Shown: one piece after another, positions 3,733 to 60,475 of the stretch
How positions within the stretch are numbered: position 1 is the first letter of the stretch
Layout: every line of letters begins with the position of its first letter
Source of the DNA: an uncultured Clostridium sp.
Lineage (GTDB): Bacteria; Bacillota; Clostridia; TANB77; CAG-508
Direction: 5' to 3'
DNA: 64,000 bases
NCBI GenBank assembly: GCA_900553365.1
Contig: USDL01000001.1
Span: 55,967 to 119,966, forward strand
Translations under genes and position numbers: made by a program
Notes under the pieces: model-generated
Databases searched by the model: none
What the model saw: only the letters and a program-made list of their open reading frames with translations
What the model was told of the DNA's origin: nothing

Positions 3733-3743
3733 TTTTGTCCTCC

Positions 3744-4190: not shown

Positions 4191-4213
4191 AGTTACTCCT
4201 TTGAATCATTCAT

Positions 4214-4242
4214 ATAATAACATAATCAAATGAAGTTGTCAA
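4214..4242 (-). promoter_or_regulatory. Sigma70-type promoter (TTGACA-17-TATTAT)
   Basis: On the minus strand, TTGACA (4242-4237), a 17 nt spacer, then TATTAT (4219-4214), about 20 nt upstream of the RBS of the 3744-4190 gene. Confidence 0.65.
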
Positions 4243-4256
4243 GAGGATAATAAAAA

Positions 4257-10925: not shown

Positions 10926-10954
10926 GGCATTACTCTCCTTTATATTTTTGTCTT

Positions 10955-10983
10955 ATTATATCATGTTACTTTTAATTTGTCAA
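10955..10983 (-). promoter_or_regulatory. Sigma70-type promoter (TTGACA-17-TATAAT) upstream of dnaE
   Basis: On the minus strand, TTGACA (10983-10978), a 17 nt spacer, then TATAAT (10960-10955), just after the stop of the RecJ-like gene. Confidence 0.65.
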
Positions 10984-10985
10984 CC

Positions 10986-28900: not shown

Positions 28901-31900
28901 CTTTCCAAAGCCGATTTATCTGTAGGAGTGTACTTAATAGTTTTAACAGCTTTTACACTGCCTATATCTACTGTTTCTCCATTTTGAGCTCTATTTAGCA
29001 AAGAAGCAGCATTCGCAGCCGTTAAATATTGATTAGCTAAATTAGCAAGAGCTTCTCCTTCTGAATCATAAGCATAAACTTTAGCCTTGGTAGATTCAAC
29101 CAAAGCATCAGAAGTTTCAATATAAGTACCAGACAACATTAAAGTTTGAAGTTGATTCTTTAATTGTGCAACTCTTAAATTATCTTCTTGAATCTGTGCT
29201 TGTAAACTAACAGCAATAGTCTAAAGTCTAACTTTGTTCATTATTTCTTCAGCATCAGTTTTAAGCACAATGTTCTCTCCTTCAATCTCCAAAGCATTAA
29301 TATAATCAGCATTTGTAGAAAGAAGTTCAAGAGTAGTTTCAATACTTAATCTACCAGAAGAGGCCATTTCTTCTCTTGCATCTGCAAGCTGGTCAAAAAT
29401 ATTGGAAACATCAGAAAAAGCTTCTTTTAATTCAGACCAAGATTTAATATAACCATCAGGTAATTCCAAGTCAGAAAAATATTCTGAAGACATAGTTTCA
29501 GCAATCTTTTTGCCCTCATCCAAAACAGTAGAATAAGCATTATCATAAGTTGCCCTTAACTAATCAGCCAATCCATTTTCATCAATGTCTCCATTATTAA
29601 GAGCTTCTTGTACTTGACTCAAACTGTTTCTAACAGTTTCAGGAAATTCAGCAAAGAGTTCATTAAGATTAGAGTTCTTTAAATCGTATTTATCACCGTT
29701 AAAAACTTCATCAATCTTAGCTTCAAGGTCATTCATAGCATTCATATCTTCAAGATATTTGTTAATTAAACCATTATCACCAGTTAATTTAGTAAGAGTT
29801 TCTCTATCTGCATAAAACATGGAATTAACAATGCTTTGATTTGTATTCACTCCATTAGAGAAATAACCATCTGTACCCATCCAATTAAACAATTTTTGAC
29901 CTTGAGAAACAGTAAGAGAATTAAAATAATCCTCTGTAATACCCCGTGGTTGTTTACTAAATCCATATTTATCTTTAAATTGTTGTGCTATGTTCTATTT
30001 ATCAACAATTTCACCATCAACGATTTCAAATCCAATTCCAACCACAATTTTCATCAAATTTTCGTCATCTTCAATATTCGGGAAAGTATCTTCCAGATAT
30101 TCCTTTAATTGTGTTCTAGCTTTATTAGCATCTGCAACAGTCATATCAGTGTTTATTTTTTCATCTGTTGCCTCAATTAAAGTTTTTGCTGTTTCATCAG
30201 AAACAAGACTATTTACGGAATTAATCATATCTCTAACTTTTTGTTTATAAAGTTCTGGAGATAAAGCATTTCCCGCTGCATCAACAGCATCAATAGACCC
30301 AATAGCATTATCAAACAAATTACTCGTTACATTATCAACATCATCATATGCCCCAATAAGCCTTGCGTAAGCTTTACCAGATTCACTTAAAGTTTCTTTT
30401 GCACGTATAATAGCTCTATCATAAGCGTTTTGAGCCGCATCGACAGCGGCTTCACCAGCGTTGTTTTCAGCTTGCGCTTCTTTTATTTTTATATCAAGGT
30501 CTGCAACTTGTTTTTCAAGAGAATTTATGTCTTGATGTCCAACTTTATATTCATAAGCTTCTCTAGCTTTATTAACGTTGTCCTAAGCAACAACTATTAC
30601 ATCATTTAAATTTTTCTCTCCATTGGCTCGTCTTTGTTGATAATCAGCCAACCTATTTTCTGCTTTGGTTAATTCATCCTAAAGTTGTTTTATTTCAGTA
30701 TCATTATAATCTTTACGAGCTCTGTCTAATTCTTTTTGCGCTTGTTCTCTTTGTTGTTCTAAAGCTGTTACATCGGTATAATTATTAGCCTTATCAGACC
30801 TTGCGTTATTCAAATCTGAAAGTGCATCTTTATATTCTTGGGTCGCAGTATCTAAGGTATCTTGTAATACTTTTTCACCATCAGAGCCCATAACCATTCT
30901 CTAATCCGCTAAAGTTTGCAAAGAATCTATTAACCGCTTAACTTTATCAGAAGTGGTTTCCATTTCGTTGCCCATATCAGCAATAGCATTACCATTTTCA
31001 TCCGTGCGAACGCGCAACTCAGGAAATGCTTCTACTAATTGATTACTATAATCAAGGAATTTTTCATATTCTTCGTCGGTAAGAGAAACATTTCTTCCTA
31101 AAGAGTCAACACCCTTAGAAAGCTCGTCATATTTCTAAGCAGTGGCTTGTAAAGATTTAGCGTTAGTTAATTTCTCTGCTGCATCTGTAAAAGCAGTTTT
31201 AGCTTCTTCTATCATTTTTTGTTGATGTTTTTTATATAAAGCATAAGCAGCCCCAATAGCTAAAGCTGCAATTCCAATACCAAGAGCAGGTCCTAAAGCT
31301 GCTGGAAGTGCTTTCATGGCAGTAAAAATAGAACCTCCTGCTTTCATAGAATCAACAAATGTAAGAGCTATAGTAGAAGTGGCTTTTCCGCCAATACCCA
31401 TACCTATCATGGTTCCTAAAGAAGTTGCCCAACCACCACCGAGAAGATTTTCTCCAATAGCCATACCAGCTAAAGCACCAAGACCAGACCCAACCATGGT
31501 TGCGCCACCTTTTAAAGCCGCTCTTTGAGGACTTATCCTAGAAGAGCCTTCTAAATCATCTGCAACAGTTTTGACTGCCGCATCATTACGTCTTCTTGCC
31601 AATTCTTCTGTGGCTATCTAAAGCTTTTCTTCATCAGTCAAGCTTCTTTGACCTTGAGTGATTTGTTCAGTCCTTAAACGAAGCTCTTCCTAATCTATAG
31701 TAGACAACATAGCATTTACCCATGCGTTGTTTTGGTCAGCCAAATTTTCTCGTAGCTGTAATGCCGCCTACTCGTCGGTAAGCGCAGTGTTTTTTAAAAT
31801 ACTGGCAATATTTTCTTTTATTTTAGTATTGTAATTAAGCATAGAATTTTGCATTGGAACATAACCATCAACCAATATCTTTTTAGTACTATCAGTTAAA

Positions 31901-34900
31901 TTATCTAAACTATTAATAGTATTAGTTAAGCTTTTTGCGTAATTCTCTTTAAGAGCCACATTAAACGATTCAGTATAATTTGCTTTTAAAGATTCTCCTA
32001 AACTTTGTCTTCCGCCTTGAGTAAAATATCCCTGAGTTGAAATATTCATTTTATCAAGTTTCATAGAAACATTAATACAAGATGAGACAAATTTAGACCA
32101 CGCATTTTGCATAGTGCTTCCAAAACCAACAGAATTCATTGCAGCAATTGCTAGTAAAATAGCTCCCGCCCATGTTACAAGATTATCAGAAACTTCTGCA
32201 ACAGCATTATAGAACCAAATTAAAGTATCAGACTGATTAAGAGCCAAAACCCACTTTTCAAGAGCAACAGTAACTCTATTCTTGGCAGCTTCAACACTAT
32301 CAGTATAAGACTTCATTTTTTCAATAGCAGTGCCATATGCATTAGTAGAAATTTCTTCAAATTTTTCAACAGCATCCCAGTTTTCAAACAAGGTAAGCAA
32401 GTTTTCACGCTGTCTTACACCAGCCAGAGAAGTAGCAATACCAGATTTTTGAACGTCTGTATATGTATTCCACTTGCTAGCAATTTCATCCATAATATCA
32501 TCAAAGTCTCTAAAGCTAGATACAGAATCTCTAATATTAATACCCAACGCACCAAGAGCTTTTTCAACATCATTTAAGTTAGCCCATTCATCGGCATTAT
32601 AATTCTCGCTTTCAATATCAGACTCAGCAGCTACAAATTTACCAGCGGCAATGTTCTAATAACGTGCATAAACCGTTTTCATAGATTCACCAACAGACGC
32701 AGCGCTCTTTTGAGTTACATCTGTAATAGTGGTAAGATACGCAATATATCTATCTAAACTTGTACCAGCCATTTGTGCAGAATTACTAGCACGAGACATA
32801 GCTTCTGCCAAATCACCAGCACTTATAGCGGCCTGCATGTCAACAGCAGTTAATTTGTCCACTACTCCTTGAATTTCGGTTGCTTCTAACTTCCATCCTT
32901 TAAGCACACTAATCAGATAACTCGTAGCATCAGCGCTATTAATCATACCAAGCGTACTTAATTGCATAGAAGCATTAGTTAATTGAGATGCTTCTTGTCC
33001 TTCGTAACCAGCACGAAGCCAATCGTTTGCAGCTTCAGCAATTTCTTCAGTAGTTTTACCGATTTCTTTTGCCAAGTCATTAAACTCAAGCATCATATCG
33101 TGAATATTACTCTTGGTATAACCACTTGCAATTTGAAGGTCAACCATTTTCTAGTCAAGTCTTTCAGTAGCAGAAATAAAATCATTAAATACTTTCTATA
33201 TCTACTGGAAAGAAAATATTTGCATTATAGCCATTCCAATTTGAGAAAAGCTATCTTTAAAATTATCCTTAAGTTGAGTTAAAAACCCTTTGGTTTGATT
33301 AACAGAATCTCCAACTCTATCCATTTCAATCTGATTATTATTTAGGATACGAGTTCTTTCTTGCTCTAATTTGTTAATTTGCTCTTCTGTTAGTTCAATA
33401 CCATTTAAAGTTTTCTTTTGTTCATCATATTTATATTGATTTGCTAAATTATTTTTTTGACTTTGTAAAGAATGAATAAAGGATTTATTTTCAATAGCTG
33501 CATTTCCAGTTAAAGACATTCCTTTATTTTCTGCTCTAGCAATTTCTCTTTCAATTCTACCTTGTTCTTCAAGGTTTCTATAATAACCAGTCAAAGTATT
33601 TTGAAGAGTTGGGTTATTATTTCTTGCCGCTTGAGCATATTTAACATCAGTAGTAGCAGAAGTCCTTGCTGCTTCATTAGTAGCTTTTCTTAAAGCGTCA
33701 AGCTTTTCTTTTCTTTCACTTTCAGTTAAATAAGTAGCCTTAGTAATTTCTTCTTCAAGAGTTTTAGAATCAACAATTTGCCCATTTATAGTTAAAATTT
33801 GTTCAAGATTTTCTATTTGTTCACGAAGAGTTTGACTTAACTGTTGTTGAGCGGTTTGCTTATCTCCTGTTAAACCTTCAGCTTTTAAATCAGAATCTTT
33901 TAATTTGTTCCTCAAACCAAGCAATTCCGTATATTGCTTTAACATCTGACTCAAATCTTTAGTTTGAGAAGTATTGACAGCGGTTGTAACACTCGAAATA
34001 TTTTTAGCTTCTTTAACTTCGCCCTTTGTTTCAATTCTCTTTAATTTTGCCTATAAATCTTCATTACCTTTAGCAGACAAAATGGTTTTACCTATAGCAG
34101 AATTATCATTTACATTAGAAAGAGTAAGCTCTCTTTCAGACATCAAATCTATTTGTGCCTAAATAGCTTCTTTTTGCTTCTCAATTTGTTTGTTTAAAGC
34201 ATTACTTTCGTCTTCTGTGAAATTTACTCCATCCTAAGCCAAAGTATTTTTTTGCTCTTGTAAATTATTAAGTTCAGTTTGTAAAGTAATTAATCTTTGA
34301 TATTCTCCAACGTAAGCATTAATAATAGCTTGCTCTCTTTTATCAATGCTACCATTTTCATCAGGAGCGTAAGAAACAAAATTATTATTAGCAGCTTTTT
34401 CAGATACAGGAGGTTCTGACATACCAAAAACTCTACCTGTGGTCATCTCTCTATTCATGAGAGTTGCTTGTTCATCTTTAGTTAAAGGTTCAGCCTTGCC
34501 ATCTATAATATCATTTGCTCTAACAAGGAGGTCGTAAAATTCCTCTTCAGTTAAAGCCATGTGTTGAATTAATTGAGTAAATCCATCTTTAACATCAGCG
34601 ATAAAAAGTGAAAAATCTTTATCTGTGTCAATTCCACTTTCTTGATATAATTTTTGGAATTCAGGGTTTTGAGCATTAGCTAAAACACCATATAATTGTC
34701 CCGCAAGTTGAAAACTTTCTGTACCATAAGTCTTACCAGTTTTGGTATCAAGAATAAAATTCTAAGGAGAACCATCAGAACTCTTTGCAATCTAGTCAGG
34801 CGTAAAGGAATAATCAAAAGTTCCTTTAGGACCACTAAAACTCGCAGCCATAGGAGTTTCAGAGAAAGGAGTTAATTGAATATGAGCGTTATTTATTGCT

Positions 34901-37900
34901 TTAGTATAACTCTCGACAGCTTGTAATAAAAGTTGTTCAGCATTGTCAATACCAAGCTTGGATAAAAGGTCTGCTTTTTCTTTTAATACTCTTGCGAATT
35001 GTTCTTGAGCATCTACTATCTCTGTAGCACCGTTCCATTTTACCTCAACATCTTTTCCAGCAAAACCTTCAACTCCAGAAAATCCAGTCTTACTTAAAAG
35101 GTCAAAAACCTCATGCTCTAAATTGCCTTTTTCTCTGCTTATAATTGCATTTTTCTTTTTAGCAAAATCTTGCGCGGTCATGCCAATTTTTTCAGCGGTT
35201 AATTGTTCTCCTTTAGGAGTGTTGGCAATAGCAGCCATAAAAGCTTTTTCATCGGCAATAGCTGTTGCAGAAGGAGTAAAGCCTTTTAAAGCTCCACCGA
35301 GTTGAGTAATACTTCTTAACTTGTTACCATTAGTATCGGTATAAGTATGTGTTGCATCATCATAAGATTGCAAATCTTTATATGTATATGTAACACCTTT
35401 TTGAATTTCAGCTTCTTTGGCGCTTTCACTTACTTTATCTAAAGCGCCCTCTTCTTTAGCTAACTATTTAACTAAATCTTGAGACACCAAAATCTTTTGT
35501 TGTTCTGCATCTGCCGCAGATAAAACTTCTGTTTCATGTTTATCTAAAGCAGTATTAACATCGGTTATAGCCGCCTCTTCTTGTTGTAAAGCTTTTTCTG
35601 TTTGAGACGTTTCATTTGCCATAATAGGAGTAGATTCAATTGCTTGTTCTATTTGTTGAGAATCTTGAATTACATTGGTTTTAATTTGTTCAGAAACATC
35701 CTCAACTGTTGTTGCAGCTTGTTCTGAGTAAGTAATAAGCTATTTTAATAAACTATCAAACGTATATTTAACAGTTTTACCGTCTTCTAAAAGAGCTTCA
35801 ATAACTTGCCGAGCTCCTTCTCCTTTTATACCAGTAATTATTCCACCAAAAGTCCGCCTAACAGAATTTTTAGCAGTAAAAGAAGACCCTTGAGAAAAAC
35901 CAGATTGTTTTACACTTTCTTTTAAATTCTTGATTCTTTCAGCTTCAGGATTCAAGGGCGTTGCAACAGGAACATTAAAATCATCTTTTCCTGTATTCTT
36001 TTTACCTTTTCTAACAACTGGGGTTTGAGCCATAACAAGTTCATCCCAGTTTTTATAATGAAAATCTATTTCAGCCTAAATTTCTTGAATGCGTTTTAAA
36101 TTTTTATTTTTACTTGCTTCACTCTTAGGATTAGCAACTAAAGCTTGTACTCTTGCAAGCTCTTTCTTTTTCTGTTCAAGAATACTTTTTGCAATCTCAG
36201 CATTTTCTTGGGGACTGTTACCACCATAAATATTACCAGTTAAACCAGCTTTGTTCTACAAATTGGTAGTTAAAGCAGGAGAAGGATTACTTGTAATTTC
36301 TTCCCAGTTTACATCCTAACCTCTGATACCCTCTCTTTGATAATAGGGAGCATTCACTCCTTTGTTTGGGTTAATGGCATTGCCAGAAGAACTCACTCTA
36401 TATTCTACAGTATCTTCCACCCATCTTTGAGCAGAAGCAGTAGCTCTACGGTCTCCCTCATCTGTTTTTACAACTTTAGAAATAGTTCCGTTCAAATTCT
36501 CGTAAGCTTTAGCAAGAACTGTAATAAACTTATTAACCCCTTCTTCTGTTTGTCCAACAACAGAAAAGAACGCTTGTAATTTGTCACTTACCTTGTCAGA
36601 TTCGACTGAATCATAACGTTCTCTTGCAGCTTTAGATTCTTCATATTTTTGAGCTATTTCAGGATTTTCTTTGAAGAATTTTTCTCTGTATTTTTCTTCT
36701 TTGATAGGTTTAAGTCCTTGTGCCTATCTCGCTTGGTTTAAATTGTTTAAATTATGAGAAAGAGATGCGTCCATCCCCTCGGAAAAAGCATAAATTTTAG
36801 AAATAGAATTTGCAATAGTGTTTGCGTCCATTCCAGTAAACCGAGGATTACCTTCTGCTATTTTACGAAGTCCTTCTTCTAGCTCAGAATTGCCACCTAT
36901 TTCACTTACAATATCAGCGAGCCAATTTATTCTCTCAACTGCTTGCTTGACAGCTTCATCCCCTGCTGTTCCAGTTTGTTGAAATGCTAATGCAGATTGA
37001 ATACGTTGGAATCCTTCAGATAACCCTCCAGCCATCTTACTTCTTTGTTCTTCTAAAACAGCTTGATATTTAGCACTTGAAGTTCCAGTGATTGCACTTT
37101 CTAACGTACTATTCCGCTCTTCTCCTTCATATTTTATAGGGACATTAATAGATTGTTGAGATATAACCTCGCTCATTTGCTGTTTTGCATCAATATCAAC
37201 ACCAGCGGTTTGAACTATTTGTTCTACCAGCGCTAAAACAGCGTTGTGCAACTATTCTTTGTCACCAGATAAGCCAGCCAAGAAATCTTTTATACCCTAT
37301 TGTAAAAGCTCTCCCTTATCATCATAAGTACTTTCTTTGGCCCCTTCTATTGAATGCCAAAGTTCATCTTTATGTTTTTGGTCAATAACTTCTTGCTGTT
37401 TAGCACTAATTTGGTCTCTCTTTATTTGCTTTTCATCTGTTCTATCAGTTTTATCTTGTGTAGGAATTTCAGGTAACTCCCCCACTTCCCACCGTTGAAT
37501 CTTAGATACTTTACCTTTTAATTTTAATTGCTCTCTTAAAACACCGCTAAGTTCACTATTTTTATATAAAGCTCCTCCAATCGAGGACTCTTCAGATTCA
37601 AGAGAGGTAATACCACTTTTCATTCCAGTTAAAGCTTCTTCAAAAGCAGCTTTAATTTCCTTGGAAGAAGTATTGGCATAAGCATCTTTAATCACTTCAG
37701 GAATCAAAGAAGCTAGTTGAGAAATCTTTTGGTATTCCTCAGTTCCTTGTTTTCCACCACTTTCTAAAATCTTAAGCTGATTCAACAAAGAATTATATGC
37801 ATTTTCTATTCCTGTATAGGTTTGGTTTCTTAAATCTCCAACCCGTCCAACATTTCCTATATTTGCTAAACGTGGGTCATAAACTCTAATAGACTTTTTA

Positions 37901-38895
37901 AGCCGCCCTTCAGAATTAGTCGCGGAAACATACTCACCTTCTTTATTAATAAAAGGAGCAAATGCAGTAGTTCTTAAAACAGAAGTGTCAGTACCTTTTA
38001 CAACACGGCCTTTAGCATCAACATAGTGGTCATCTGAATCTTTTACAAAACCTTCTTGGAAGCCTCTAACTTCTATTTTTCGACCCCATTTATCAGAACC
38101 AGCTAAAGTTCTTATGCCACCAGCATGAGTCTTATCTACATATGCCCTGACATCTTTTTCTATCTGTGGATGGCGTTTCTCAAACTCCGTATCCGACATT
38201 TTAGATTTCTTTTGCTAAGTTACAATCCTTTTCATTTCCTCAGCAAAACGAGCCTCTTTCTATCGAGTAATTTTATCTTCTTCCGCCTAATTAGTTTTTG
38301 CGTTAGCTTCATAATATTTACTCATGGCATCAATTTCTTTATTATACTATTCCTCAGTTAAATTCCTTTTTGCCATGGTTTCAGCTTTATAGTCTACTTT
38401 GCCTGTTTTCGCTGCTTTTTCTCTTTCTTTCTTTATTTTTTGTTGATAGGCTTTTTGTTGCTCGGCAGCAACAATAACAGGCTTAAATTCTGTGATTTGT
38501 TTAGTATATTGCCCAATCCAAGAATCTAATTGTTTAATAAAATCAACTCTTTCTGCTAAATATTTTCCAATAGTGTCAAATTGACTATTTACACTTCCAA
38601 TATTGGAAATTTCACCAGACATTTTAGAAATTTGGGCTTTTTTACTAAGAAGAGTCTCTTTTTGTGACTGTAAAGACTAAGTAGAACTATTATTTTTTTG
38701 TAAGAAATCTGACCTTCTTGCGAATCTTTCTTGTGCAGTTAAATTCTATCCTTTGATAGATTCTTCAAATTGTTTGTTCAACTTACTCATTTTATCAGTA
38801 AGTGTTTTATCTATTTTTTCAATTTCTCGGTCTAAAAGCTAAGTACTTTTGTCCAAGCCAAGCTTTATTTCTACTTCGTATTGATTTTGAGCCAT
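25981..38895 (-). CDS. Tail tape measure protein, 4304 codons
   Basis: All gaps between about 30 ORF-track fragments were checked triplet by triplet. There is a single open frame from ATG 38893-38895 (RBS AAGGAGGAG) to TAA 25981-25983, broken only by 41 TAG codons. It contains a TP901-type tape measure core (32656-33147: ...SAGDLAEAMSRASNSAQMAGTSLD...), a Gly-zipper membrane-like segment (31135-31602) and extensive coiled coil. Confidence 0.8.
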
Positions 38896-44782: not shown

Positions 44783-45439
44783 TTAATTAAGAATTTGTGA
44801 AATATCATCAACAATATGGTCAACCAAAGAATACTGCAACTGTTGAGCATCATCCAAATACCAATCAGTCTTAAGCTTCTTAGTTAAGGTAGACTTGGAA
44901 ATAGTAGTGTTTTCTATAATATTATTATGAACCCTAGAAATCAAATTTTTATATTGCTGGTTCTGCTGTTGAACGGCGTTAAAATCACCCCGTTGCATAG
45001 CACTTCCAGAATGCAGAAGTGCCGTAGAGTTCTTTAAACAATATCTATGACCTTTATGACCATTAATAAGAATCATAGCACCGCAACTCATAGCACAAGC
45101 AAGATTAACGGTGACGATAGGCGTCTTCGAAAGCTTCATAACAGACAAAAACCCCATCGCTGAATACAAATCCCCACCATAAGAATGGACGTAAATAAAA
45201 ATCTTCTTGCGGTCTTCAATAGGAATATCTTTATCAGCATCCTCTTTGTTCCAGCGAATAATTTGCTGCATTTCTTGAAACAAAGTTTCGTCGATATCCT
45301 TGGTTATCCAAAGTTCCCTATTTTTAAGTGACCTATATTTCTAAACTAAAATAGGGTCTGGAAGTTGTAAATTAGCTTCTGGACCAAGTTCCTCTAAACA
45401 AAACAAATCATCTAAAGTATCATTCTTAATTTTATCCAT
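44783..45439 (-). CDS. ClpP-like serine protease (S14 family)
   Basis: ORF 44783-45283 extends through TAG (45351-45353) to ATG 45437-45439. ClpP-like blocks are IYVHSYGGDLYSAMG, ACAMSCGAMIL and ALLHSGS. Confidence 0.65.
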
Positions 45440-45547: not shown

Positions 45548-45958
45548 TTCTTTATTGCATAAAACGCTAAAGCTAAACTCTAACGTCTTAAGGAACTCCT
45601 TGTACACATGGTACATGAGATATGTGGCTCAAACCCGCTTTACGAACCCGTAAGTTTGGTCTTCTTTAAGTCCTCATCCTGTGCTCATGGACACCACATT
45701 AAAAAGCTGCAAGACTATGCCTTGTAGCTGGCCTAAATATACAACATGGTATATAAGGTGATAAGGTTTATGCCGACACCTTAAAACGCCTTTCTCTTCC
45801 GTTTGAAACCACGCATGAAAGTATGTTGGTCGGACAGTTTTAATTGCTACCCTGTGGAAACCTGACAACCCTAATAAGCCTCCATTGCATCACTGGATGG
45901 TAGCCCAATATACAACTTCTCTGGCAACCATGACCTCTTGTGCCAATAGGTTTATTTA
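45548..45958. ncRNA. Unassigned structured non-coding island (~410 nt)
   Basis: Visibly more GC-rich than its surroundings. There is no credible ORF in any frame, even with TAG read as sense. It has many local hairpins (GCTACAAG-gcatagt-CTTGCAGC, TTACG-ggtt-CGTAA, TGTAC-catgt-GTACA, GCTACC...GGTAGC), a duplicated GTTGTATATT..GGC motif, and hairpins bracketing it on both sides. Confidence 0.4.
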
Positions 45959-45993: not shown

Positions 45994-47442
45994 TTACAAT
46001 AAAATTTCTGTTGATTTGTTGGCTACAACAACTTTATCTGTCCTATTTCTTTTACTAATAAGCTCCGACAAAGTTTTACTTAGCTCAACTCTGTCTTTCA
46101 TGTTACCATGCTGAAGGACAACTTTACCATAACCGCTAGTTCCAAACCCACCACTATAATAATCGCAAAGCTCATCTCTTTGCATGTGACTTGAAAAACT
46201 ATTTAAGTTAATTACTCTACAACGACTCAGAGTTTGTTTTCCATTAATGGCAATGGTCTTAGTCTTCTTTTGTTTAATTTTCCAAGCCAAAGACCCTTCA
46301 ACAGAATACCCAATAAATGCAATTCCATTCTTAGCACTTGGAAGGAGCTTTTCAGCAATACCTACAGCAAAACCAGCGTTAAGCATTCCTGCACTAGAAA
46401 TAAAAATTGCTGGGTCAGGCTTTACTAAAATCTGCTCAATCTCTTCATAATTATTGATAAATTTAACCTTATCCCATGAAGAAGCTTCAATCCATCTCTT
46501 AAGTTGCTCACCCTCTAAAATTTCATTAAAAATTTTATTAATTTTACAAGTTAAAGGAGACCCAACATAAACAGGAATATTAAAATTCTCATCATCTTTA
46601 AACATTTCGTAAAGAATAGTTAAAATTACTTGACTCCTCATTAAAGAGAAAGAAGGGAAAAGCAACTTTCCTTTTCCATCAATGCAAACATCATACACAA
46701 AAGCTTTAATCTTTTCTAAATCTTTTTCTCTATCTTTTGCTTTAGCACTTTTTTCTTTGCTGGCATAAGTAGATTCACCCACTAACAAATTTGCGTTTTG
46801 AATAGGTTCAAACTTATTTGCATAATAAGTTTCAGTTCTAATATTACCTAAATCACCAGTAAACGCTATTTTACGAGTAACGCTACCATTTTTGATATAT
46901 AGAATCAATTGAGCAGCGCCGATAATATGTCCAGAAGGAATAAACTCAAATGTTACCTCATCGTCTAATTTAATTCTTTGCTTAAAAGGATACTCTTCAA
47001 TATGAGTAAGCATATCTTTTACATCAGACTCTTCATAAATTGGGGAATATTCCCTTTTAAGTTTTCGAGATAAATCTTCAACATCTCTTAACATAATCTT
47101 AGCACTATCTAATTGCAATTCTCGAATTAAATTTTTATTGCCATCAGGCACAATAATTTTTCCATCAAATCCTCTTTTGGTTAAAAGGCTTAAACGACCT
47201 GAATGGTCAACGTGCGAATGAGTCACAAATACATAATCTACATTCTTCTCTTTAAATGTAAATCTTGCACTATTAGCCTGATATTCTTTCAAAAGACTTT
47301 GATTACCTTGTACCAATCCACAATCGACAAGAATTGTTCGTTCTGGCTTTCCCCATGTAATAACTGTACAAGAACCTGTTACATCTTCTGCTGCGCCAGA
47401 ATTTTTAAAACTTACTCTAATCTTGTCTTTGCTTTTACTCAT
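45994..47442 (-). CDS. Metallo-beta-lactamase / beta-CASP family ribonuclease (RNase J / CPSF-like)
   Basis: The 482 aa intact ORF has the HxHxDH motif (THSHVDHSG) and later conserved H/D positions (IPSGHIIG, FTGDLG, SSHMQRDEL). RBS AGGGGG. No TAG codons. Confidence 0.7.
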   Translation of the reverse strand: MSKSKDKIRVSFKNSGAAEDVTGSCTVITWGKPERTILVDCGLVQGNQSLLKEYQANSARFTFKEKNVDYVFVTHSHVDHSGRLSLLTKRGFDGKIIVPDGNKNLIRELQLDSAKIMLRDVEDLSRKLKREYSPIYEESDVKDMLTHIEEYPFKQRIKLDDEVTFEFIPSGHIIGAAQLILYIKNGSVTRKIAFTGDLGNIRTETYYANKFEPIQNANLLVGESTYASKEKSAKAKDREKDLEKIKAFVYDVCIDGKGKLLFPSFSLMRSQVILTILYEMFKDDENFNIPVYVGSPLTCKINKIFNEILEGEQLKRWIEASSWDKVKFINNYEEIEQILVKPDPAIFISSAGMLNAGFAVGIAEKLLPSAKNGIAFIGYSVEGSLAWKIKQKKTKTIAINGKQTLSRCRVINLNSFSSHMQRDELCDYYSGGFGTSGYGKVVLQHGNMKDRVELSKTLSELISKRNRTDKVVVANKSTEILL

Positions 47443-53319: not shown

Positions 53320-53655
53320 TTAACCTTCGTTTTTGTATTTCTTTAATAAATACTCTGCATAATTGATTGATTCAAATATTAACTTCTTAATCTGTCCTTT
53401 ATCTAATTGATTCGTTAAAATAGCATTGATATTAATTATAATACTTACTAATTCACCATCAAAAAGAATATTACTTGACGAAACATACATCATTATTCCA
53501 CCACAATACACACGGTAATTATAAGTGGAATCGGGTTCTTGAGATTTGTCATATACATAAAGAACTTTCTTCAATTTTGAAACTATTTCTTCTAAGCATA
53601 TAATTTTCTCATTAATAGATAAAACTACTTTGAAGTTCTTTTCGTCTTTATCCAT
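53320..53655 (-). CDS. Hypothetical protein (111 aa), head-tail joining region
   Basis: Intact ATG ORF with no TAG codons. Confidence 0.45.
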   Translation of the reverse strand: MDKDEKNFKVVLSINEKIICLEEIVSKLKKVLYVYDKSQEPDSTYNYRVYCGGIMMYVSSSNILFDGELVSIIININAILTNQLDKGQIKKLIFESINYAEYLLKKYKNEG

Positions 53656-53657
53656 CT

Positions 53658-54365
53658 TTACCCCCTTCCTATAAACTTACTACCACCCATAAAACGGATT
53701 TGCCACGCAAGTCTATTTTGATAATTGTATATTTCTGAATCAAGTTGGTCTACCCATTCGTTTTTTGCTTTTAAGATACGGTCATTAGACATAATCTTGA
53801 AATCGCTGTCTTGCATTAAATTGCGAATATCTAATAACAAATTGCGCTCTTCTTCTCCCCATGCTTTTACAAGCAAACGAGCAAGAATATCTTTAACATA
53901 ACCTACCACTAAACTTGTACCATTTACATTTTTATTAGTTAAGCCTTCAAAATTGTCAGTAAATTCACCAACATAATATTGCTCAACTGCATATTGCTTG
54001 CCTTCAGGTAACACATCAGGGAATTCTACAGTGTGAGCTTCTTTATCAATCGAGCCTTGCACCAATAATTCTCCCTCAATATAATTATATACTGAATTAT
54101 CCTGAATCTCAAACTCAGGGTCAAGTTCGAATTTATTATTCTTACCATCCCCTTCAAAAACTTGCATGATACCTTTTGGTTCTTTATATTGAGATAAACG
54201 TAAAGAAACGCTTAGAGGGTTGTTAAACATAGATATTGCATTTTGCAAATAGGTGTACATTATCTTATTAAATTGCAAAGGATTAGTCTCATACGCTGTC
54301 GTAATCCTTGGGTCATCAAATAAGGCTATTGCTTTTCGATAGACATCACTAAACAAAATGCCCAT
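53658..54365 (-). CDS. Hypothetical protein (235 aa), head completion/connector position
   Basis: Intact ATG ORF with RBS AAGGAGGG and no TAG codons. Confidence 0.45.
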   Translation of the reverse strand: MGILFSDVYRKAIALFDDPRITTAYETNPLQFNKIMYTYLQNAISMFNNPLSVSLRLSQYKEPKGIMQVFEGDGKNNKFELDPEFEIQDNSVYNYIEGELLVQGSIDKEAHTVEFPDVLPEGKQYAVEQYYVGEFTDNFEGLTNKNVNGTSLVVGYVKDILARLLVKAWGEEERNLLLDIRNLMQDSDFKIMSNDRILKAKNEWVDQLDSEIYNYQNRLAWQIRFMGGSKFIGRG

Positions 54366-54384
54366 TTAAACCCTCCTTATTTGT

Positions 54385-55233
54385 TTAATGTCTTATTGAA
54401 TCAAAATTCATTTGAGCCAACAGATTGTCAAAAACACCCTTGTTAGAAATTCTGTTCAGAAGCTCAACTTTACTTCTAACACGATATTTAGCATCATTTT
54501 CATAGCACTTTCCAAGCCAATAAGAACAAATAAAGTCTTTATCAGCTTCAGTCAAAGAATTCATGTAATCCTCAAGTTCACGCTCACTCTTCTTGTAAAT
54601 ATTTACGAGGTCTCCCTTCGTAACAACAGCATGACCCTCTCTCTTTAAACAGGAAACATTATAGCGTTCCGCAACATCAGCGAATTCGGGAGCCAAAAGA
54701 ATAATTTCTTTATCGAACCACTTACGATATTTGGAAACACATTCCTCAAACTGTTGCCAACTAAGAACACGCTGTTCTCCGAGAGTATGGAAATTAATAG
54801 TCAAACCAGTAAGCTGAATAGCGGTTGAAAGACCACCAAGCAATTCACGATTATGAACAATAACAATTTCCTTGTCACTCTTTCTATTACCAAGAATTTC
54901 CAGAAGTCTTTCTGTTGTATTAGAAGTATTATCCTGTACTTCTTTTGCCTTAAAAGAACTTTCTGTGTCGCCCTCTTTATTATCCAAAGTAGATTCTTTG
55001 ATTGCTTCTGCCAACTTTTCATTCTTTACTTTCTCTTCCTTGAGTTCACTACTCAAAGATTCAATCGTAGACTGGAACTTTGCCATCATAACTTGAATAT
55101 CTTCTAACGAGATAGAAGACTGAGTAGCAGAAGACTCCTTAACAGAAGTCTCCGCATTCTCAGCAATTTGTTCCTTATTAGTTTCGTTTACAACTTCTTC
55201 TGTATTTTTAATAGTTTTCTTATTTACAGCCAT
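54385..55233 (-). CDS. Hypothetical protein (282 aa) downstream of the capsid gene
   Basis: Intact ATG ORF with RBS AAAGGAGA and no TAG codons. Confidence 0.45.
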   Translation of the reverse strand: MAVNKKTIKNTEEVVNETNKEQIAENAETSVKESSATQSSISLEDIQVMMAKFQSTIESLSSELKEEKVKNEKLAEAIKESTLDNKEGDTESSFKAKEVQDNTSNTTERLLEILGNRKSDKEIVIVHNRELLGGLSTAIQLTGLTINFHTLGEQRVLSWQQFEECVSKYRKWFDKEIILLAPEFADVAERYNVSCLKREGHAVVTKGDLVNIYKKSERELEDYMNSLTEADKDFICSYWLGKCYENDAKYRVRSKVELLNRISNKGVFDNLLAQMNFDSIRH

Positions 55234-55341
55234 TTTTTACAATCTCCTTTTAAACCTTTTAAACATATCTGGAGCAACCAGAATTTACGAAATTAACTAA
55301 TTATTATAATTAATTACTTATAATTAGATTATAATTTGATA

Positions 55342-55953
55342 TTAGTTAAGAGTAATAGCACCAATCTTGCTACCTACAATAGCGTCCATACCCATACGCA
55401 TGTCAACGGTGAAACCGTAAGTATGGTCAGCAGCAAACAAGGGGTCCTTCTCAACAGAAACGGTATTACCCTCCATGACAACCTTGATAGGCTTATTCAT
55501 GCCAAGAGGAAGCATATAAATAATATCGTCGGGAAGAACGACTTCAGGCTCACCATTGATGGTGTTAGGAACAAGAGCATTACCCAGTTCAATCATAGGA
55601 ACATTCTTGTAATCAGGCAGGAAGCCATCTCTAACAATAGCGCTATCCTCACCATAACGGAAACCCTTTGCACTGTCAGGAAGGACAGAAGCGAGAGCAA
55701 TAGAAGTACCAAGAGCATAAACATCAGCACCGCCATTAGCAAGTTTTACCAAACGTGCAACTTTGAGCCAGTTTTCATCAGTAAGACCGTTAGCCATATA
55801 GCCAGCGATACCATCCTGATTGTTAGTAGCAACGTCAGTGTTATTGGTAATAATAGAAGCCATTACCTTAGCAAGACGAGCCTGAATATAAGCGGCAAAA
55901 GAAGCACCAATCTTCTGGAGAAGCTTACCCCAATCTTGGCGGCCCGATGCCAC
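55342..55953 (-). CDS. Major capsid protein, exon 2 (5' boundary approximate)
   Basis: It has the same GC-ending codon style as exon 1. The ORF lacks its own RBS or ATG. It lies directly after the intron-encoded endonuclease. Stop is TAA at 55342. Confidence 0.6.
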   Translation of the reverse strand: MASGRQDWGKLLQKIGASFAAYIQARLAKVMASIITNNTDVATNNQDGIAGYMANGLTDENWLKVARLVKLANGGADVYALGTSIALASVLPDSAKGFRYGEDSAIVRDGFLPDYKNVPMIELGNALVPNTINGEPEVVLPDDIIYMLPLGMNKPIKVVMEGNTVSVEKDPLFAADHTYGFTVDMRMGMDAIVGSKIGAITLN

Positions 55954-57406
55954 GTGGTCAGTTATATTAAGAGTTATTTAGTGTTTTTAGCTTTTTGCTA
56001 TTCATAATCTTTTAAAATTATTTCAGCATAATAATTATTATCTTTTAATAGCCAATTTATCTTGTCAATTATTTCTTGTTTTTCTGGAATAGAATGGTCT
56101 CCTTTTATTCTTAAGACTTTGTAACCCATTTTTTGAACTACTCTATCTCTTTTTATATCTTTCTACTGGTCTTGATGCCAATACCAACCATCATATTCCA
56201 AATCTATTTTAATATCTCCAATAAAAATAGCTACATCTAAATTGAGTTGACTTAAAGGGTAGTTCAACTCTACTTTATATTCATCTAAAAGCATTTCATA
56301 AATTTTTAATTGTTGTGAAGAACATGGAATTAATTCTTTTTTATTAGCTAATGCTTCTTGCATTCTTTTTCGCACTTCTGGATTTTGTACGGGATAATCA
56401 CAACCGTATTTTTCCCTGCAAGTGTTGATAGCTTTAGCCCTTACTTCTTTATTCGAAAAAGGATTTACATCTCCATATTTTTCTAAACAAGTTTTAACAG
56501 CTTTTTCTTTTGCTTCTTTTGTTAAAATTGGATATTCAACTCCATATTTTTTCAAACAAGTCTGTTTTGCTTTTTCTTGACCTTCCTTAATCTACCGAGA
56601 ATTATCCACCCCATATTTTTCATTTAAAGTCTTTTTAGATTTATCCTTAATTTCTTTACTTTTAGCAGGATTATCTACTCCATATTTTTCTAAATTTGTT
56701 TTTATAGACTTATTATTTCTTTGAGCTATTAGCTCTTTATTCTTTCCCCAACAATCTCTACAACAATATTTACCATCATGCTTTTCTATTCTTTTTAAAT
56801 ATTTTTTGTATTGAACCGTTATTTCTTTTCCACAAAAATCACAAACAGCCACAACTTCTCTATGGCTTCCTTCTGGTAATTCTTCTGGTTTAACATGAAT
56901 AGTCTTCCCTTTAAAAAGACTATAACCTTTTTCATTGAAATATTTCTAAGCGGTTTGTGTCCAAGGAATTTCAATCAATTGATTTTCTTTTAACATACAA
57001 ACCTCCTTTTTATTTTATTTAAACACTAAATTTTTCGAATCGTCAATTCGCTCTAACCCTTTCGGATTCTTGTATTTTCACACAAGCTTAGACTATATCT
57101 TCATCCCTATAGGATGTCCACCATTTCGGAATAATTTATTGACTATATTCCTACTCCTCTTACGAGGATAGTCGTTGAACCTTCTTCTTTTCGAAGCTTG
57201 GCTGCTGATTACCAATTTTTAAGATACTTAGGGTTTAACCTTATATCATACAATCAATTTTTTCTGCTTTCGCAACTATCACGATTAAATCTATTTCAAT
57301 TTTGCGTTGTAGTTTGATTGTCTTTACGGTATTCCAGCAATTAAATGGAAATATTTTTACGCATATTACTATACGCCCTAGCTATTTATAACGTGCTTAT
57401 ATTTAA
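55954..57406 (-). mobile_element. Group I intron (IA-like) in the major capsid gene, carrying a homing endonuclease ORF
   Basis: On the minus strand the conserved core reads GGTTCAACGACTATCC (R element, 57181-57166) and GAAGATATAGTC (S element, 57102-57091). GNRA/GAAA-capped hairpins include TCCTC-GTAA-GAGGA and AATCC-GAAA-GGGTT. The capsid codon style stops abruptly after ...GTTGACTGG. Exact splice sites are not resolved (roughly +/-20 nt). Confidence 0.8.
55974..56996 (-). CDS. Intron-encoded homing endonuclease (repeated KYG-x-xNP modules plus a C-terminal Vsr/PD-(D/E)xK-like nuclease)
   Basis: ATG 56994-56996 follows AAAGGAGG. Four tandem ..EKYGVDNP.. type repeats are followed by DLEYDGWYWH..KD.KRD...GYKVLRI. 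Four in-frame TAG codons. Stop is TAA at 55974-55976. Confidence 0.7.
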
Positions 57407-57901
57407 CCAGTCAACATAGAGAGAAATCTGCTCTCTCTTAGCAGAAATAGTATACTCAGTGTTAGAAGCAGTCTGAACACCACCACGAGCAATGCCTTCA
57501 GCAAGGCTATTCACAATGAAGAGCTCATTGCTATCGACTTCATACTTAGCAACATCACCGAAACCAACCTGAGTGACATCATAAAGCTGTTCATAACCAG
57601 ACGCAGCAACAGTAGGAACAACAGGAGTGATAGCACCAGCAAGAATGGTATCAAAAGTCTCAAGGAAGTTACTCTTCTTGTAGACCATAGGATTCTTAAT
57701 CATATCGAGACCGCTCCACTTCATGCCAGCGTTCTCAACACAATACTTCATAAACTCTTGGTTAAAGGTCTTATTAGCTTCAATATACTCAGGGGTGTTG
57801 TTCTTACCCTCAATGGACTTCTGAGCCAAAGAATAGCAAGTTTCAACGAGACCATCAGCGACATCTTCGTTGAATTTGTTATAACTAAAAATTTGTTTCA
57901 T
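57407..57901 (-). CDS. Major capsid protein, exon 1 (3' boundary approximate)
   Basis: ATG 57899-57901 follows AAGGAGGA. It lies after the protease/scaffold and decoration-like genes. Highly-expressed-type codon usage (AAG, CTT/CTC, ATT/ATC) ends near 57407. No TAG codons. Confidence 0.6.
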
Positions 57902-58009
57902 AATAACAAAATCCTCCTTAATTAATTTATAAAAATCATAAAGTAAATATCAATATTTTTTTAAACTATTCAAGTTATTCAAGAACAATTATTCAAGAAC
58001 AATTTAAAA

Positions 58010-58537
58010 TTACTCGTGGACAACGGTGCAATAGAACTTCTTACCCTCGTTCTTGACACCGATAATCTTATCCTTGCCAAACTCGACCTTAACACAGAGC
58101 TTGTCAGCAGCAGCAACAGCAGCAGGAGCCCACTGACCATCAGAACCAGCAACAGCGAACTGACCAGCCGTAGGAGCAGACTCAAAGTTATCTTCACCGA
58201 GATAGAACTCGTCACCAAGCTTGGGGCAACGAACGCGAGTATGAGCACCAGCAGGGCAAGGAAGACCGCAAGTCTTAACACCCTCACTGTAGACAACGCC
58301 CATGATTTCGCCCTTAGAAACGCCAACATAGTCAACGATACCGACACGACCAGTACCAGCGTAAGGCTTAATCTCACGAGTATTCATATCCTTCAGACCC
58401 TTATAAACCTCATGGTCGATAAGGTCGCCAATTTCAACCAAAGAACCATCAGCGAGTTCCTTGTCTTTGCAAACGCCAGAAACCAGATAGCTTTTAACAT
58501 CTTCAGAAGCCATCAAAATCTTCTCAATAAATTTCAT
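58010..58537 (-). CDS. Head auxiliary/decoration-like protein (175 aa), putative
   Basis: Intact ATG ORF with RBS AAGGAGGA and GC-ending codon bias like the capsid gene. It lies between the protease/scaffold and the capsid gene. No TAG codons. Confidence 0.4.
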   Translation of the reverse strand: MKFIEKILMASEDVKSYLVSGVCKDKELADGSLVEIGDLIDHEVYKGLKDMNTREIKPYAGTGRVGIVDYVGVSKGEIMGVVYSEGVKTCGLPCPAGAHTRVRCPKLGDEFYLGEDNFESAPTAGQFAVAGSDGQWAPAAVAAADKLCVKVEFGKDKIIGVKNEGKKFYCTVVHE

Positions 58538-58561
58538 AATAAAGTTATCCTCCTTTTTTAA

Positions 58562-60475
58562 TTAAATCTTATTAAGATTTTTCATTGCATTTTTAAGGTT
58601 ATTTGCGCTGTCGTTCACTTCAGTAACAACAGGTTTATCCTTAACGATATCAGCAGAGAACTCTTTCTCCTTAGCTTTTCTACTAAGTTTCTTCTGAGCA
58701 TAAAGAGCATCTGCAATTTTATGGTCAACAGCCTCATTAAGTTCCTCATCGGAAGCATAAGTACTGTTATCACAATTTTCTTTCATAAATGCCTTAATAT
58801 TAGTAGCATTTTCCTCAGTCAAATCTTCTTCAGAATCAACCAAAGAACAAGCCAAAGCATAAAGTTCGGCATTTTTCTTTGCGTTAAACTGAGCATTAAG
58901 AGCATTATACTTTTCAGTCAGTTCAGCGAAAGAGGTATTAAGAGTATTGAATCTCTCATAAAGTTCATCAGCAGTAAGTTGTTCATCACCGACAGCATAG
59001 TGGGTATCCTGAATAACATTACTTTCACCAGAAGGTTGGCCGACTAAAATACTGCCATCATCATGTTCTTTGAGGATATCAGTATCAACTTTAGGAGAAC
59101 CAAGCTCTTCACCTTCAATCTGTCCATAGTCAGCATGAGATTCATCGACAGTTACATCAGTAGCGGCAAACTGAGCGGGGTCTTCGCAATTTTCGATTTT
59201 CTTTTCACCATCGTTATCCTCAGCCTCGGTTTCCTTTTTGCCATCATCATCGTCGTTATCATCATTATCATCATCATGGTCGTGGTCATCATCATTTTTG
59301 TCATCTTCAGACTCATTCTCTTTATGACCGTCATCCTTATTACCATCGTCATCTTCATGCGCACAAGTGCAAGGGTTGTTACCGCAGACTTCGCACTTGC
59401 CGTCTTCAGATTCACATTCCTTGGATTCAGTCTCTTTACCACTCTCATCTTCAGGATTTTCATCCTTAGAGAGTACAATCTTTTCTTTAGCGTCCATATC
59501 AACATTAGCGACATTTTCTTCGTTGATGCTATAAGTAGCTTTAAAATTTTCATCATCAAGGCTAAAGCAAACAACATTGTCGTTAATTTCCGTGACACTG
59601 TAATGAGAAGCATTCTCATCAAGACCGCTATTCAGAAAAGATTCGAGAAGTTGTCTTTTCTCTTCATAGGTCATTGTTTTTGGTTCCTCCCCTCTTTGTT
59701 CATTATCCATCGTGATTTCGTCCACTTTTTCATTAACAACTCCGTTATCAGGAATAATGGAATCGAAATCCTCATTTTTATTATCTGTATCAGAGCCAGA
59801 ATTTTTATCTTTATTGTTATTATCTTCCAGCTCTTTATAAGCGAAAGATAAGCATTTTTCCTGTTTCTGATAAACAGCGTCATTAATTTTATCAAGAATG
59901 GTTAAATGTGCATTAGGGATAGCTTCAGTAACAGCAGAACCAAGAATAGTAAATCCATCAAAAATGAATCTATCTATTACTTCGACTTTATTTTCATCTA
60001 TATGACTTTCAAGGACTTCTATTTCTATAGAAATTTTCTTTTTAGTATCCTTAAGCAATCTTTTAACTTGTTTATAAGCATATTTAGCCCAAAGAACGCA
60101 AGTAAAATGTACCCAAGTTTGACCGTCATGTTCGACAATTTCAACCAAATCTTCGCCACGAATTACGCCAAGTGGGACTTCACATTTACCATTAGTAAAG
60201 TCAAAGTAATCTTGTTGTAACTCATTATCCCATCTATATTCCATTTCATGAGCTTTAAAGTCATCATGAGTAGTATCAAAAGCACCAAGAGCGGGTTTAT
60301 TATAAAAGGTAGGTTTAGCGTCTTGCATAGCAGACACAGGGAAATAGCTATTATTTCTATTAGGGTAGACATCAGAAATCGCGTAAACGTCGATAGCAAT
60401 AAAGTCATTTTTTAACACATTCTTAATTTTCAAACTTTGCGGAGAAAGTTCAAATTTCAGAACTTTTTTATCCAA
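58562..60475 (-). CDS. Prohead protease / scaffold fusion (putative) with an extreme acidic low-complexity linker
   Basis: The 637 aa ORF starts at TTG after GAAAGGAGGAAG. The N-terminal ~200 aa is globular, followed by a D/E/N/H-rich tract and then a coiled-coil C-terminus. It lies immediately upstream of the head genes. No TAG codons. Confidence 0.45.
   Translation of the reverse strand: MDKKVLKFELSPQSLKIKNVLKNDFIAIDVYAISDVYPNRNNSYFPVSAMQDAKPTFYNKPALGAFDTTHDDFKAHEMEYRWDNELQQDYFDFTNGKCEVPLGVIRGEDLVEIVEHDGQTWVHFTCVLWAKYAYKQVKRLLKDTKKKISIEIEVLESHIDENKVEVIDRFIFDGFTILGSAVTEAIPNAHLTILDKINDAVYQKQEKCLSFAYKELEDNNNKDKNSGSDTDNKNEDFDSIIPDNGVVNEKVDEITMDNEQRGEEPKTMTYEEKRQLLESFLNSGLDENASHYSVTEINDNVVCFSLDDENFKATYSINEENVANVDMDAKEKIVLSKDENPEDESGKETESKECESEDGKCEVCGNNPCTCAHEDDDGNKDDGHKENESEDDKNDDDHDHDDDNDDNDDDDGKKETEAEDNDGEKKIENCEDPAQFAATDVTVDESHADYGQIEGEELGSPKVDTDILKEHDDGSILVGQPSGESNVIQDTHYAVGDEQLTADELYERFNTLNTSFAELTEKYNALNAQFNAKKNAELYALACSLVDSEEDLTEENATNIKAFMKENCDNSTYASDEELNEAVDHKIADALYAQKKLSRKAKEKEFSADIVKDKPVVTEVNDSANNLKNAMKNLNKI

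Follow-up and report, generated by a model that had tools for sequence, protein, structure and literature searches.

A predicted mobile group I intron with a TAG-containing endonuclease gene in the major capsid gene of a ~215-kb gut phage

An interrupted capsid gene

How is a phage capsid protein made from a gene whose two parts are separated by 1,447 nucleotides (nt), and what is the DNA that lies between them? The locus that raises this question sits in a 64,000-nt stretch of contig USDL01000001.1 (GenBank assembly GCA_900553365.1, positions 55,967 to 119,966, from an uncultured Clostridium sp.), which we refer to in full as the window. An earlier note on this DNA had proposed that a group I intron with a recoded homing endonuclease splits a major capsid gene here, and all of the elements it listed were found on the minus strand, with small corrections to their coordinates. 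Our analysis leads us to conclude that the locus very probably holds a functional, mobile intron of subgroup IA in the capsid gene of a recoded phage, one that reads TAG as glutamine. The parts of the interrupted gene are as follows.

57406-57901, minus strand: capsid exon 1, from ATG 57901; 165 codons plus the first base of the Tyr166 codon, ending ...REQISLYVDW + T57406
55959-57405, minus strand: predicted group I intron, 1,447 nt, starting UAAAU after exon U57406 and ending in the terminal G (omega-G) 55959; based on Rfam model RF00028 and on the breakpoint against intron-less alleles
55342-55958, minus strand: capsid exon 2, starting with the AC of Tyr166 and HVASGRQDWGK..., with stop TAA 55344-55342

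All genes surrounding the intron are on the minus strand. As had been claimed, the capsid open reading frame (ORF) ends after ...LYVDW and then runs into a TAA; the break falls at T57406, and read-through without splicing would continue as LNISTL and reach the TAA after seven codons. The note was also right that the frame resumes with no ribosome-binding site (RBS) and no ATG, since inspection of the sequence ahead of exon 2 found neither a Shine-Dalgarno sequence nor an ATG, but its resumption point of about 55953 is the GTG that the ORF caller assigned as a start inside the frame, whereas the capsid frame itself restarts at A55958. When T57406 is joined to A55958 the result is 1,113 nt in frame, encoding a capsid protein of 370 amino acids (aa) that reads ...LYVDW-Y-HVASGRQDWGK..., with the Tyr166 codon composed of T + AC (in DNA, exon 1 ends ...GACTGGT and exon 2 starts ACCACGTGG). 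Gene callers list this protein as fragments of 171 and 203 aa, and as three to four pieces in relatives.

Comparison with relatives places the junction exactly. A database search returned more than 100 capsid homologues, many of them uninterrupted, 363-375 aa long and reading VDWYHVA(S/A)G, with D164, W165 and Y166 nearly invariant. The joined DNA aligns with the intron-less relative L004 without a gap at the junction, the outcome of the exon-joining check that the note had suggested, and the alignment to intron-less alleles breaks precisely at the intron ends 57405/55959. It had been pointed out that homologous phages might encode the two halves as genuinely separate proteins; this scenario is excluded because homologues do not encode the capsid halves separately. 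The change in codon style at the break is likewise real: G+C content at third codon positions (GC3) is 0.40 and 0.36 in the two exons versus 0.17 in the endonuclease ORF, and overall G+C, which is ~0.42 in the flanking DNA, is only 0.25-0.32 (~0.28) within the insert.

The nature of the interrupted gene was approached through structure prediction. A model of a 95%-identical intron-less capsid homologue (mean predicted local distance difference test score, pLDDT, 76.7) matched HK97-fold capsids and encapsulins, with 347 PDB chains at E <= 1e-3, and a long helix is predicted at residues 175-203, just after the intron site. A local Pfam search of the capsid protein gave no match; precomputed annotation supplies the Pfam names YonB for the capsid and YonD_N for the 637-aa gene upstream. 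The nearest annotated phages by tblastn, at 22-25% capsid identity, are SPbeta-like, Lactococcus 949-type, Clostridioides and Enterocloster phages, in one of which the gene is annotated as the major capsid protein, and none of 50,697 phage records matched the locus by megablast. Contigs of related phages measure 212-220 kb. We take the host gene to be an HK97-fold major capsid gene of a ~215-kb SPbeta-like gut phage. That it is the major capsid gene which is split, as the note maintained, agrees with this fold, with gap-free alignment to more than 100 uninterrupted homologues and with intron-less alleles in the same species.

The ribozyme core and the distant 3' splice site

The predicted RNA elements within the insert, each read on the minus strand, are given below.

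57041-57405, minus strand: ribozyme core, ~365 nt, in the order P1-P2-P3-P4-P5(abc)-P6-P7-P7.1-P7.2-P3'-P8-P7'-P9-P9.1-P9.2
57378-57384, minus strand: internal guide sequence UAGCUAG, which pairs with exon CUGGU and intron UA to form P1, with the wobble pair U57406.G57382
57169-57180, minus strand: R element GTTCAACGACTA, J6/7 and the P7 5' strand GACUA (57173-57169), invariant in 17 relatives
57091-57101, minus strand: S element AAGATATAGTC, J8/7 and the P7 3' strand UAGUC (57095-57091)
57128-57168, minus strand: hairpins P7.1 (57168-57155, GUAA loop) and P7.2 (57151-57128, UAGUC in its loop)
57021-57031, minus strand: 5' strand AUUUAGUGUUU of a helix bracketing the ORF, a perfect 11-bp inverted repeat
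55976-55986, minus strand: 3' strand AAACACUAAAU of the same helix, overlapping the last ORF codons and the first base of the stop and ending 17 nt before the omega-G
57391-57395, minus strand: candidate P10 guide within the P1 loop, CACGU, able to pair with ACGUG (55955-55951) at +4 to +8 of exon 2

Fit to a group I covariance model, which had been named as a check, was found: Rfam RF00028 (Intron_gpI) matched 57400-57069 with 63.9 bits against a gathering score of 50, covering the full model (E = 2e-15 in a 2-kb scan), and the same match returned at E = 6.9e-14 in a permissive scan of all 64 kb. The R element occurs once in the window, with 0 expected by chance, and lies one base away from the 57179-57168 first given for it; the S element is exactly where it had been placed. 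S-type 11-mers with one mismatch allowed number 15 against 7.9 expected in the window and are little proof alone, and the case for a group I intron rests on the covariance model, not on such bare matches.

We further aligned 17 intron cores drawn from relatives of the capsid gene, using nhmmer, RNAalifold and pair counting. Of the 68 pairs that RNAalifold predicted, 47 show compensatory double changes. Adding P7 as a pseudoknot brings the total to 73 pairs, for which 97.3% of cells are paired versus 38-43% when the partners are slid by 1-3 columns; pairs with double changes number 47 versus 13-21 in the slid controls, and the covariation score is 0.579 versus at most 0.128. P4 and P7 are invariant across the set, P7.1 shows double changes in 4 of its 5 pairs, and the window copy keeps every core position that is invariant in the 17 relatives. 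The minimum-free-energy fold of the single sequence (z = -3.97) contains P1, P2, P3, P4-P6 with a large P5 extension, P7.1, P7.2, P8, P9, P9.1 and P9.2. At other insertion sites the guide sequence varies together with the exon, and a terminal G was present in 10 of 10 related introns examined. Taken from sequence and comparison, the insert is a group I intron: the model score exceeds the threshold, the cores of 17 relatives covary strongly, a U.G pair marks the 5' splice site and the last base is G. The earlier identification holds. The P7.1/P7.2 hairpins between P7 and P3' form the signature of subgroup IA, to which we assign the intron by sequence at the level of IA rather than IA1, IA2 or IA3.

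A second near-copy of the S element (GGAATATAGTC) is present at 57151-57141, as the note had reported, but it forms the loop of the P7.2 hairpin and is rejected as a functional duplicate of the core element. UAGUC is kept in the P7.2 loop of closer relatives that retain P7.2, and the stem sequence differs in L028; the conserved loop may make a tertiary contact or an alternative pairing with GACUA. As for further group I introns, the Rfam scan of the whole window at E <= 0.001 gave only the capsid intron, and nhmmer with the intron core detected no second copy in the window.

This state of preservation bears on whether the insert could be a decayed relic that does not splice, the capsid being made as two polypeptides or the gene being dead. 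Gene callers do list exon 2 alone as a 203-aa protein from GTG 55953 (P0035, P0042). Against a relic, however, stand the lack of an RBS for exon 2, whose called start falls inside a conserved motif; the position of the break at a nearly invariant D-W-Y, just before the long helix at 175-203; the intactness in the window copy of all core positions invariant in 17 relatives; and the retention of the same arrangement, in an essential capsid gene, by several ~215-kb genomes. We regard a relic as exceedingly improbable.

The core ends at ~57041 with the endonuclease ORF downstream, so the 3' splice site is ~1 kb distant. An equivalent helix of 11-15 bp was found in every ORF-containing relative, realized by five unrelated sequences, always ending 12-18 nt before the terminal G and overlapping the end of the endonuclease ORF; the ORF-less intron L027 is without it. 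The P1 loop, for its part, holds 4-8 nt complementary to exon 2 between +4 and +14, and this segment covaries with the exon in 10 introns, the guide/exon 2 pairs being CACGU/ACGUG in the window, AAGCAAU/GUUGCUU in L008, UGCGGAAA/UUUCCGCA in L030 and CAACUU/AAGUUG in L018. The covariation points to roles for both the bracketing helix and the P10 guide in delivering the 3' splice site.

The endonuclease and its reassigned codon

Downstream of the core lies the second component of the insert, which is listed here with two giant ORFs of the window that bear on its reading.

55974-56996, minus strand: predicted homing endonuclease ORF, ATG 56996 to TAA 55974, 340 codons, with GGAGG at 57006-57002
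25981-38895, minus strand: giant ORF of 4,304 codons, open only with TAG as sense
21790-25809, minus strand: giant ORF of 1,339 codons, open only with TAG as sense

The description of a 340-aa endonuclease ORF with its own RBS after the core proved accurate: GGAGG precedes the ATG, and the product matches DUF7487 (5e-30) and DUF559 (5.7e-7, above its cut-off) in Pfam, PHROG 12131 and 3339 (both annotated 'homing endonuclease') and I-Bth0305I. Pfam MTES_1575 (2.4e-6) fell below its cut-off, a weak zinc-finger match was also seen, and the Pfam scan gave no NUMOD match. The family is large, with more than 6,500 matches, and we found no paper in the literature that names DUF7487. A profile of 40 family sequences has as its best solved relative 3R3P, the catalytic domain of I-Bth0305I (E = 0.0035), and a structural model of the endonuclease (pLDDT 92) was matched by Foldseek to 3R3P with a probability of 0.98, a template modelling (TM) score of 0.55 and a root-mean-square deviation of 4.2 Å over 97 residues. 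In this model a beta-rich, zinc-ribbon-like CxxC...CxxC unit is followed by six helical 'KYG' repeats and a C-terminal Vsr-like nuclease. Six residues (E267, Y268, D269, H274, D280, R283) do not vary among 40 relatives, and D254 and D284 hardly do; all are present in the window protein, as candidate counterparts of D196/N208/H213/D222 of I-Bth0305I.

The Vsr-like EDxHD homing endonucleases have I-Bth0305I as their prototype. It is encoded in a group I intron that Bacillus phage 0305phi8-36 carries in recA, possesses two NUMOD-2 motifs, and its ORF interrupts P5 (PMC3239194; PDB 3R3P). The window protein resembles it in being intron-encoded, in its C-terminal Vsr-like PD-(D/E)XK domain and in belonging to a Firmicutes phage, and I-Bth0305I is its best solved-structure match by profile and among the best by fold. 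On the other hand, the window protein carries the CxxC...CxxC unit and 5-6 DUF7487 repeats instead of NUMOD-2, and its ORF follows P9.2 rather than sitting in P5. The model accordingly points to a nuclease of the I-Bth0305I lineage whose DNA-binding part is built differently, and not to a full architectural member. Family membership argues that the ORF product is a Vsr-like (EDxHD-type) homing endonuclease, from which its activity and target would follow.

A relative of this enzyme was encountered in another setting. In L002:1950-3710 (ENA ERZ26858474 NODE_1876) a group II intron (Rfam group-II-D1D4-5, 100.6 bits; Intron_gpII, 60.1 bits) splits a 173-aa head gene upstream of the capsid, the homologue of window 58010-58537. 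Its ORF is not a reverse transcriptase; it encodes a 350-aa protein of DUF7487 plus Vsr-like nuclease, with seven sense TAGs, in the family of the window endonuclease.

The endonuclease ORF contains four in-frame TAGs, at 56948-46, 56594-92, 56165-63 and 56000-55998. Could they be real stops, so that the intron still splices but its endonuclease is a pseudogene and the element is now immobile? Four in-frame TAGs under the standard code and the lack of a suppressor tRNA in the window speak for this, as does the general experience that intron endonuclease genes often decay in the homing cycle. Several observations oppose it. The frame runs for 340 codons without TAA or TGA at 28% G+C. Seven diverged but near-identical copies keep the frame, with TAG swapping for CAG/CAA at 5 of 7 positions and with no internal TAA or TGA, and one of the TAGs aligns with the conserved Gln of DQQKD, a motif shared by the Paenibacillus homologue P0231. 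The family-invariant residues are retained, and intron-plus and intron-minus alleles together with a signature in the flanking exon imply recent mobility. Moreover, essential genes of the phage require TAG to be sense: the two giant ORFs, of 4,304 aa with 41 TAGs and of 1,339 aa with 20, exist as such on that condition alone, and 118 TAGs occur in 19,034 codons, while all 44 of the ORFs tallied end in TAA or TGA and none in TAG. We judge the pseudogene explanation very unlikely, and read TAG in the endonuclease ORF, by sequence comparison, as a sense codon for Gln, under a code-15-like genetic code.

The note had described the mobile element as itself adapted to the code of the phage. The four TAGs and their sense reading stand, but 'evolving under the phage's code' is the better wording, as TAG and CAG/CAA interchange freely and the TAG share is typical: TAG makes up 0.20 of Gln codons in the endonuclease and 0.14 overall in the TAG-using genes of the phage. 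Head-module genes (window 53320-60328, comprising the YonD_N-like and 175-aa genes, both capsid exons, and the 282-, 235- and 111-aa genes) hold no TAG, scaffold included, and have a higher GC3, of 0.24-0.44. In many other window genes TAG constitutes 10-50% of Gln codons. Late genes with high expression seem to avoid this codon.

Mobility, precedents and neighbouring elements

Alleles with and without the intron coexist in the same species (intron-plus L005, L007, L020, L024 and L025; intron-minus L009-L011), and an ORF-less version of 382 nt occupies the window's capsid site in L027. The intron-less allele L009 (IMG/VR) encodes a 100% identical capsid protein, and its exon 1 is identical to that of the window at 496 of 496 nt. 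In exon 2 eight synonymous changes are clustered within +2 to +26, with seven more over the remaining ~590 nt (intron-less L009 type GTTGACTGGTATCATGTGGCTGCTGG; intron-type exon 2 ACCACGTGGCATCGGG). Across all loci, each of 10 intron-plus alleles has C at position +2, where 19 of the 20 intron-less ones have T. In L004, which is intron-less with 95% capsid identity, a free-standing LAGLIDADG_3 gene lies right after the capsid (4130-4978), at which place the window has a short intergenic spacer.

Searching relatives by nhmmer with the window core located capsid insertion sites after W165 (the window site), three bases upstream of it (L057), after W229, near residues 105-116 and near residue 315, so that, by sequence, related introns occupy at least five capsid sites; the fragment ends of P0012 and L016 suggest a further one near residues 322-323. 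In L052/L053 (IMG/VR UViG_3300013947_000022 and 3300013426_000051) a single capsid gene is interrupted by three related group I introns (2142-4872), and L008 carries two capsid introns, each with a different endonuclease. The exons at W165 (site A) and W229 (site B) both end in ACUGGU and have a guide in common. At W229, L018 possesses a core 92% identical to that of the window and an endonuclease only 40% identical, while at W165, L030 has a core of 64% and an endonuclease of 49% identity; across the set, site-A enzymes are 49-89% and site-B enzymes 38-40% identical to the window endonuclease. Core and endonuclease identities thus do not match up in L018 and L030: the endonuclease lineage tracks the insertion site, and cores have been exchanged.

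These figures can also be set against the proposal that the intron moves chiefly as RNA, reverse-splicing wherever a CUGGU site occurs, with the endonuclease as a passenger. Cores that are 92% identical at two ACUGGU-ending capsid sites (site A in the window and site B in L018), both served by one guide, are what such a process might leave behind. Yet the endonuclease lineages follow the site (49-89% at A, 38-40% at B), a pattern that fits DNA-level homing with cores exchanged by recombination, and each site needs its own P10 guide, which differs between the two. We consider spread mainly by reverse splicing unlikely.

Under our preferred reading, a functional and mobile subgroup-IA intron, the capsid pre-mRNA would be transcribed through the insert and its first ~365 nt would fold as the ribozyme. 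The UAGCUAG guide would pair with exon CUGGU and set U57406 opposite G, whereupon free guanosine would attack after U57406. The 11-bp helix (57031-57021/55986-55976) would loop out the ~1-kb ORF and bring the 3' tail to the core, the P10 guide in the P1 loop would pair with exon 2, and ligation of the exons after G55959 would rebuild Tyr166 (T + AC) and the 370-aa capsid protein. The endonuclease, with its own Shine-Dalgarno sequence, would be made only under conditions in which UAG stands for Gln. Where a mixed infection brings both alleles together, it would cut intron-less capsid alleles near the junction of VDW and YHV, and repair templated by the intron-plus genome would transfer the intron along with a small adjoining part of exon 2.

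A number of results weigh against this reading. The default Rfam scan of the whole window at gathering scores missed the intron, owing to speed filters, and splicing in vivo is read from the anatomy of the locus. PDB matches of the nuclease domain are weak in E-value terms, and a direct phmmer search of the endonuclease against solved structures found no relative, only a chance zinc-finger match, which is why the family profile was needed to reach 3R3P. A promoter/terminator scan returned 12 sites versus 10.4 expected, that is, chance level, with the best 'promoter' overlapping the S element; we claim no internal promoter for the endonuclease and infer the timing of its expression. The 64-kb window contains no tRNA, hence no suppressor tRNA for UAG, and the decoding agent was not seen there. 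Finally, the cluster of synonymous changes in exon 2 possibly reflects co-conversion, immunity of the target site or fitting to P10.

It is a more tentative idea, possible rather than probable, that the intron family might work as a two-part kit. One part would be a shared core whose CUGGU guide serves at least two capsid sites; the other would be site-specific endonuclease cassettes, bounded by the helix and swapped between cores, with related cassettes also in a group II intron (L002). Sense TAGs inside an otherwise TAG-free capsid gene might gate the enzyme to the phase in which UAG means Gln, and translation and docking of the 3' splice site might be mutually exclusive on any one RNA, because the helix overlaps the ORF stop and a translating ribosome would open it.

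The nearest precedent is the group IA2 intron of phage T4 nrdD (sunY) with I-TevII, in which the ORF lies 3' of a compact core and the 3' splice site, ~1 kb off, is returned by pairing. Both are phage introns of subgroup IA with the core at the 5' end and the ORF downstream of it; unlike the T4 intron, ours has a capsid host gene, a Vsr-like/DUF7487 enzyme rather than a GIY-YIG one, sense TAGs, and an ORF-closing helix of 11-15 bp backed by covariation. Staphylococcus phage Twort has three group I introns in orf142, and SPbeta has introns in bnrdE and bnrdF; several related subgroup-IA introns in one gene of a Firmicutes phage, and SPbeta-type phages as known carriers, are points in common with the present case, whereas host gene, endonuclease family and the recoded genetic code set the present intron apart.

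Among gut phages, one to four group I introns interrupt the capsid genes of crAss-like Delta/Zeta phages with alternative codes; these introns were found via protein domains and with no recoding in the capsid example (Yutin et al. 2021, PMC7886860). The capsid described here is in contrast of the SPbeta-like YonB type, with ~22-25% identity to Firmicutes phage capsids, and not of Crassvirales. In Agate phages a group I intron endonuclease in an early gene has an in-frame reassigned stop, TGA to Trp, and it was proposed that recoding delays the endonuclease until the code switch (Borges et al., bioRxiv 10.1101/2021.08.26.457843). The window endonuclease likewise carries the reassigned stop of its phage in frame, but with TAG as Gln, and the intron resides in a late, TAG-free capsid gene. 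Intron-dense jumbo gut phages, whose splicing was borne out by metatranscriptomes, were moreover reported in 2026. For gut phages, therefore, both introns in capsid genes and recoded endonucleases within introns have been published before; the present case differs in its phage lineage (SPbeta-like, ~215 kb) and in the DUF7487/Vsr-like architecture. Current understanding is unchanged, and the observations on crAss-like, Agate and Jug phages are extended by a well-documented mobile intron evolving under a reassigned stop, which can be compared across natural alleles of the intron-plus, intron-minus and ORF-less types. In terms of annotation, recognizing the intron corrects capsid-based classification and structure prediction for ~215-kb recoded gut phages, and a default Rfam scan within a pipeline can miss such introns.

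Other intervening sequences were noted in the window. The gene for DnaE (DNA polymerase III alpha) is also split, by an ORF-less insert of 245 nt (8269-8513, minus strand) between ...ADKLRKSIA, ending at 8514, and KKNPKAY..., starting at 8268; DnaE homologues read ADKLRKSIAKKNPK uninterrupted, with I-A-K-K invariant. The insert starts UAA after U, ends ...AACUG and folds with z = -2.69, and it matched no Rfam family even at E <= 1. Probably the insert is a small self-splicing intron, one of a kind to which the general model is blind. Between the DnaE pieces 10986-13025 and 8511-10121 there is a stretch of 864 nt (10122-10985) devoid of a long ORF, which may hold another intervening element, and an Rfam scan of 3 kb at this region found nothing. 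Lastly, a 'drum' RNA motif at 45830-45926 on the minus strand (Rfam 43.6 bits against a gathering score of 43) sits between two genes, 44783-45439 and 45994-47442, of which the second encodes a beta-CASP/metallo-beta-lactamase nuclease.

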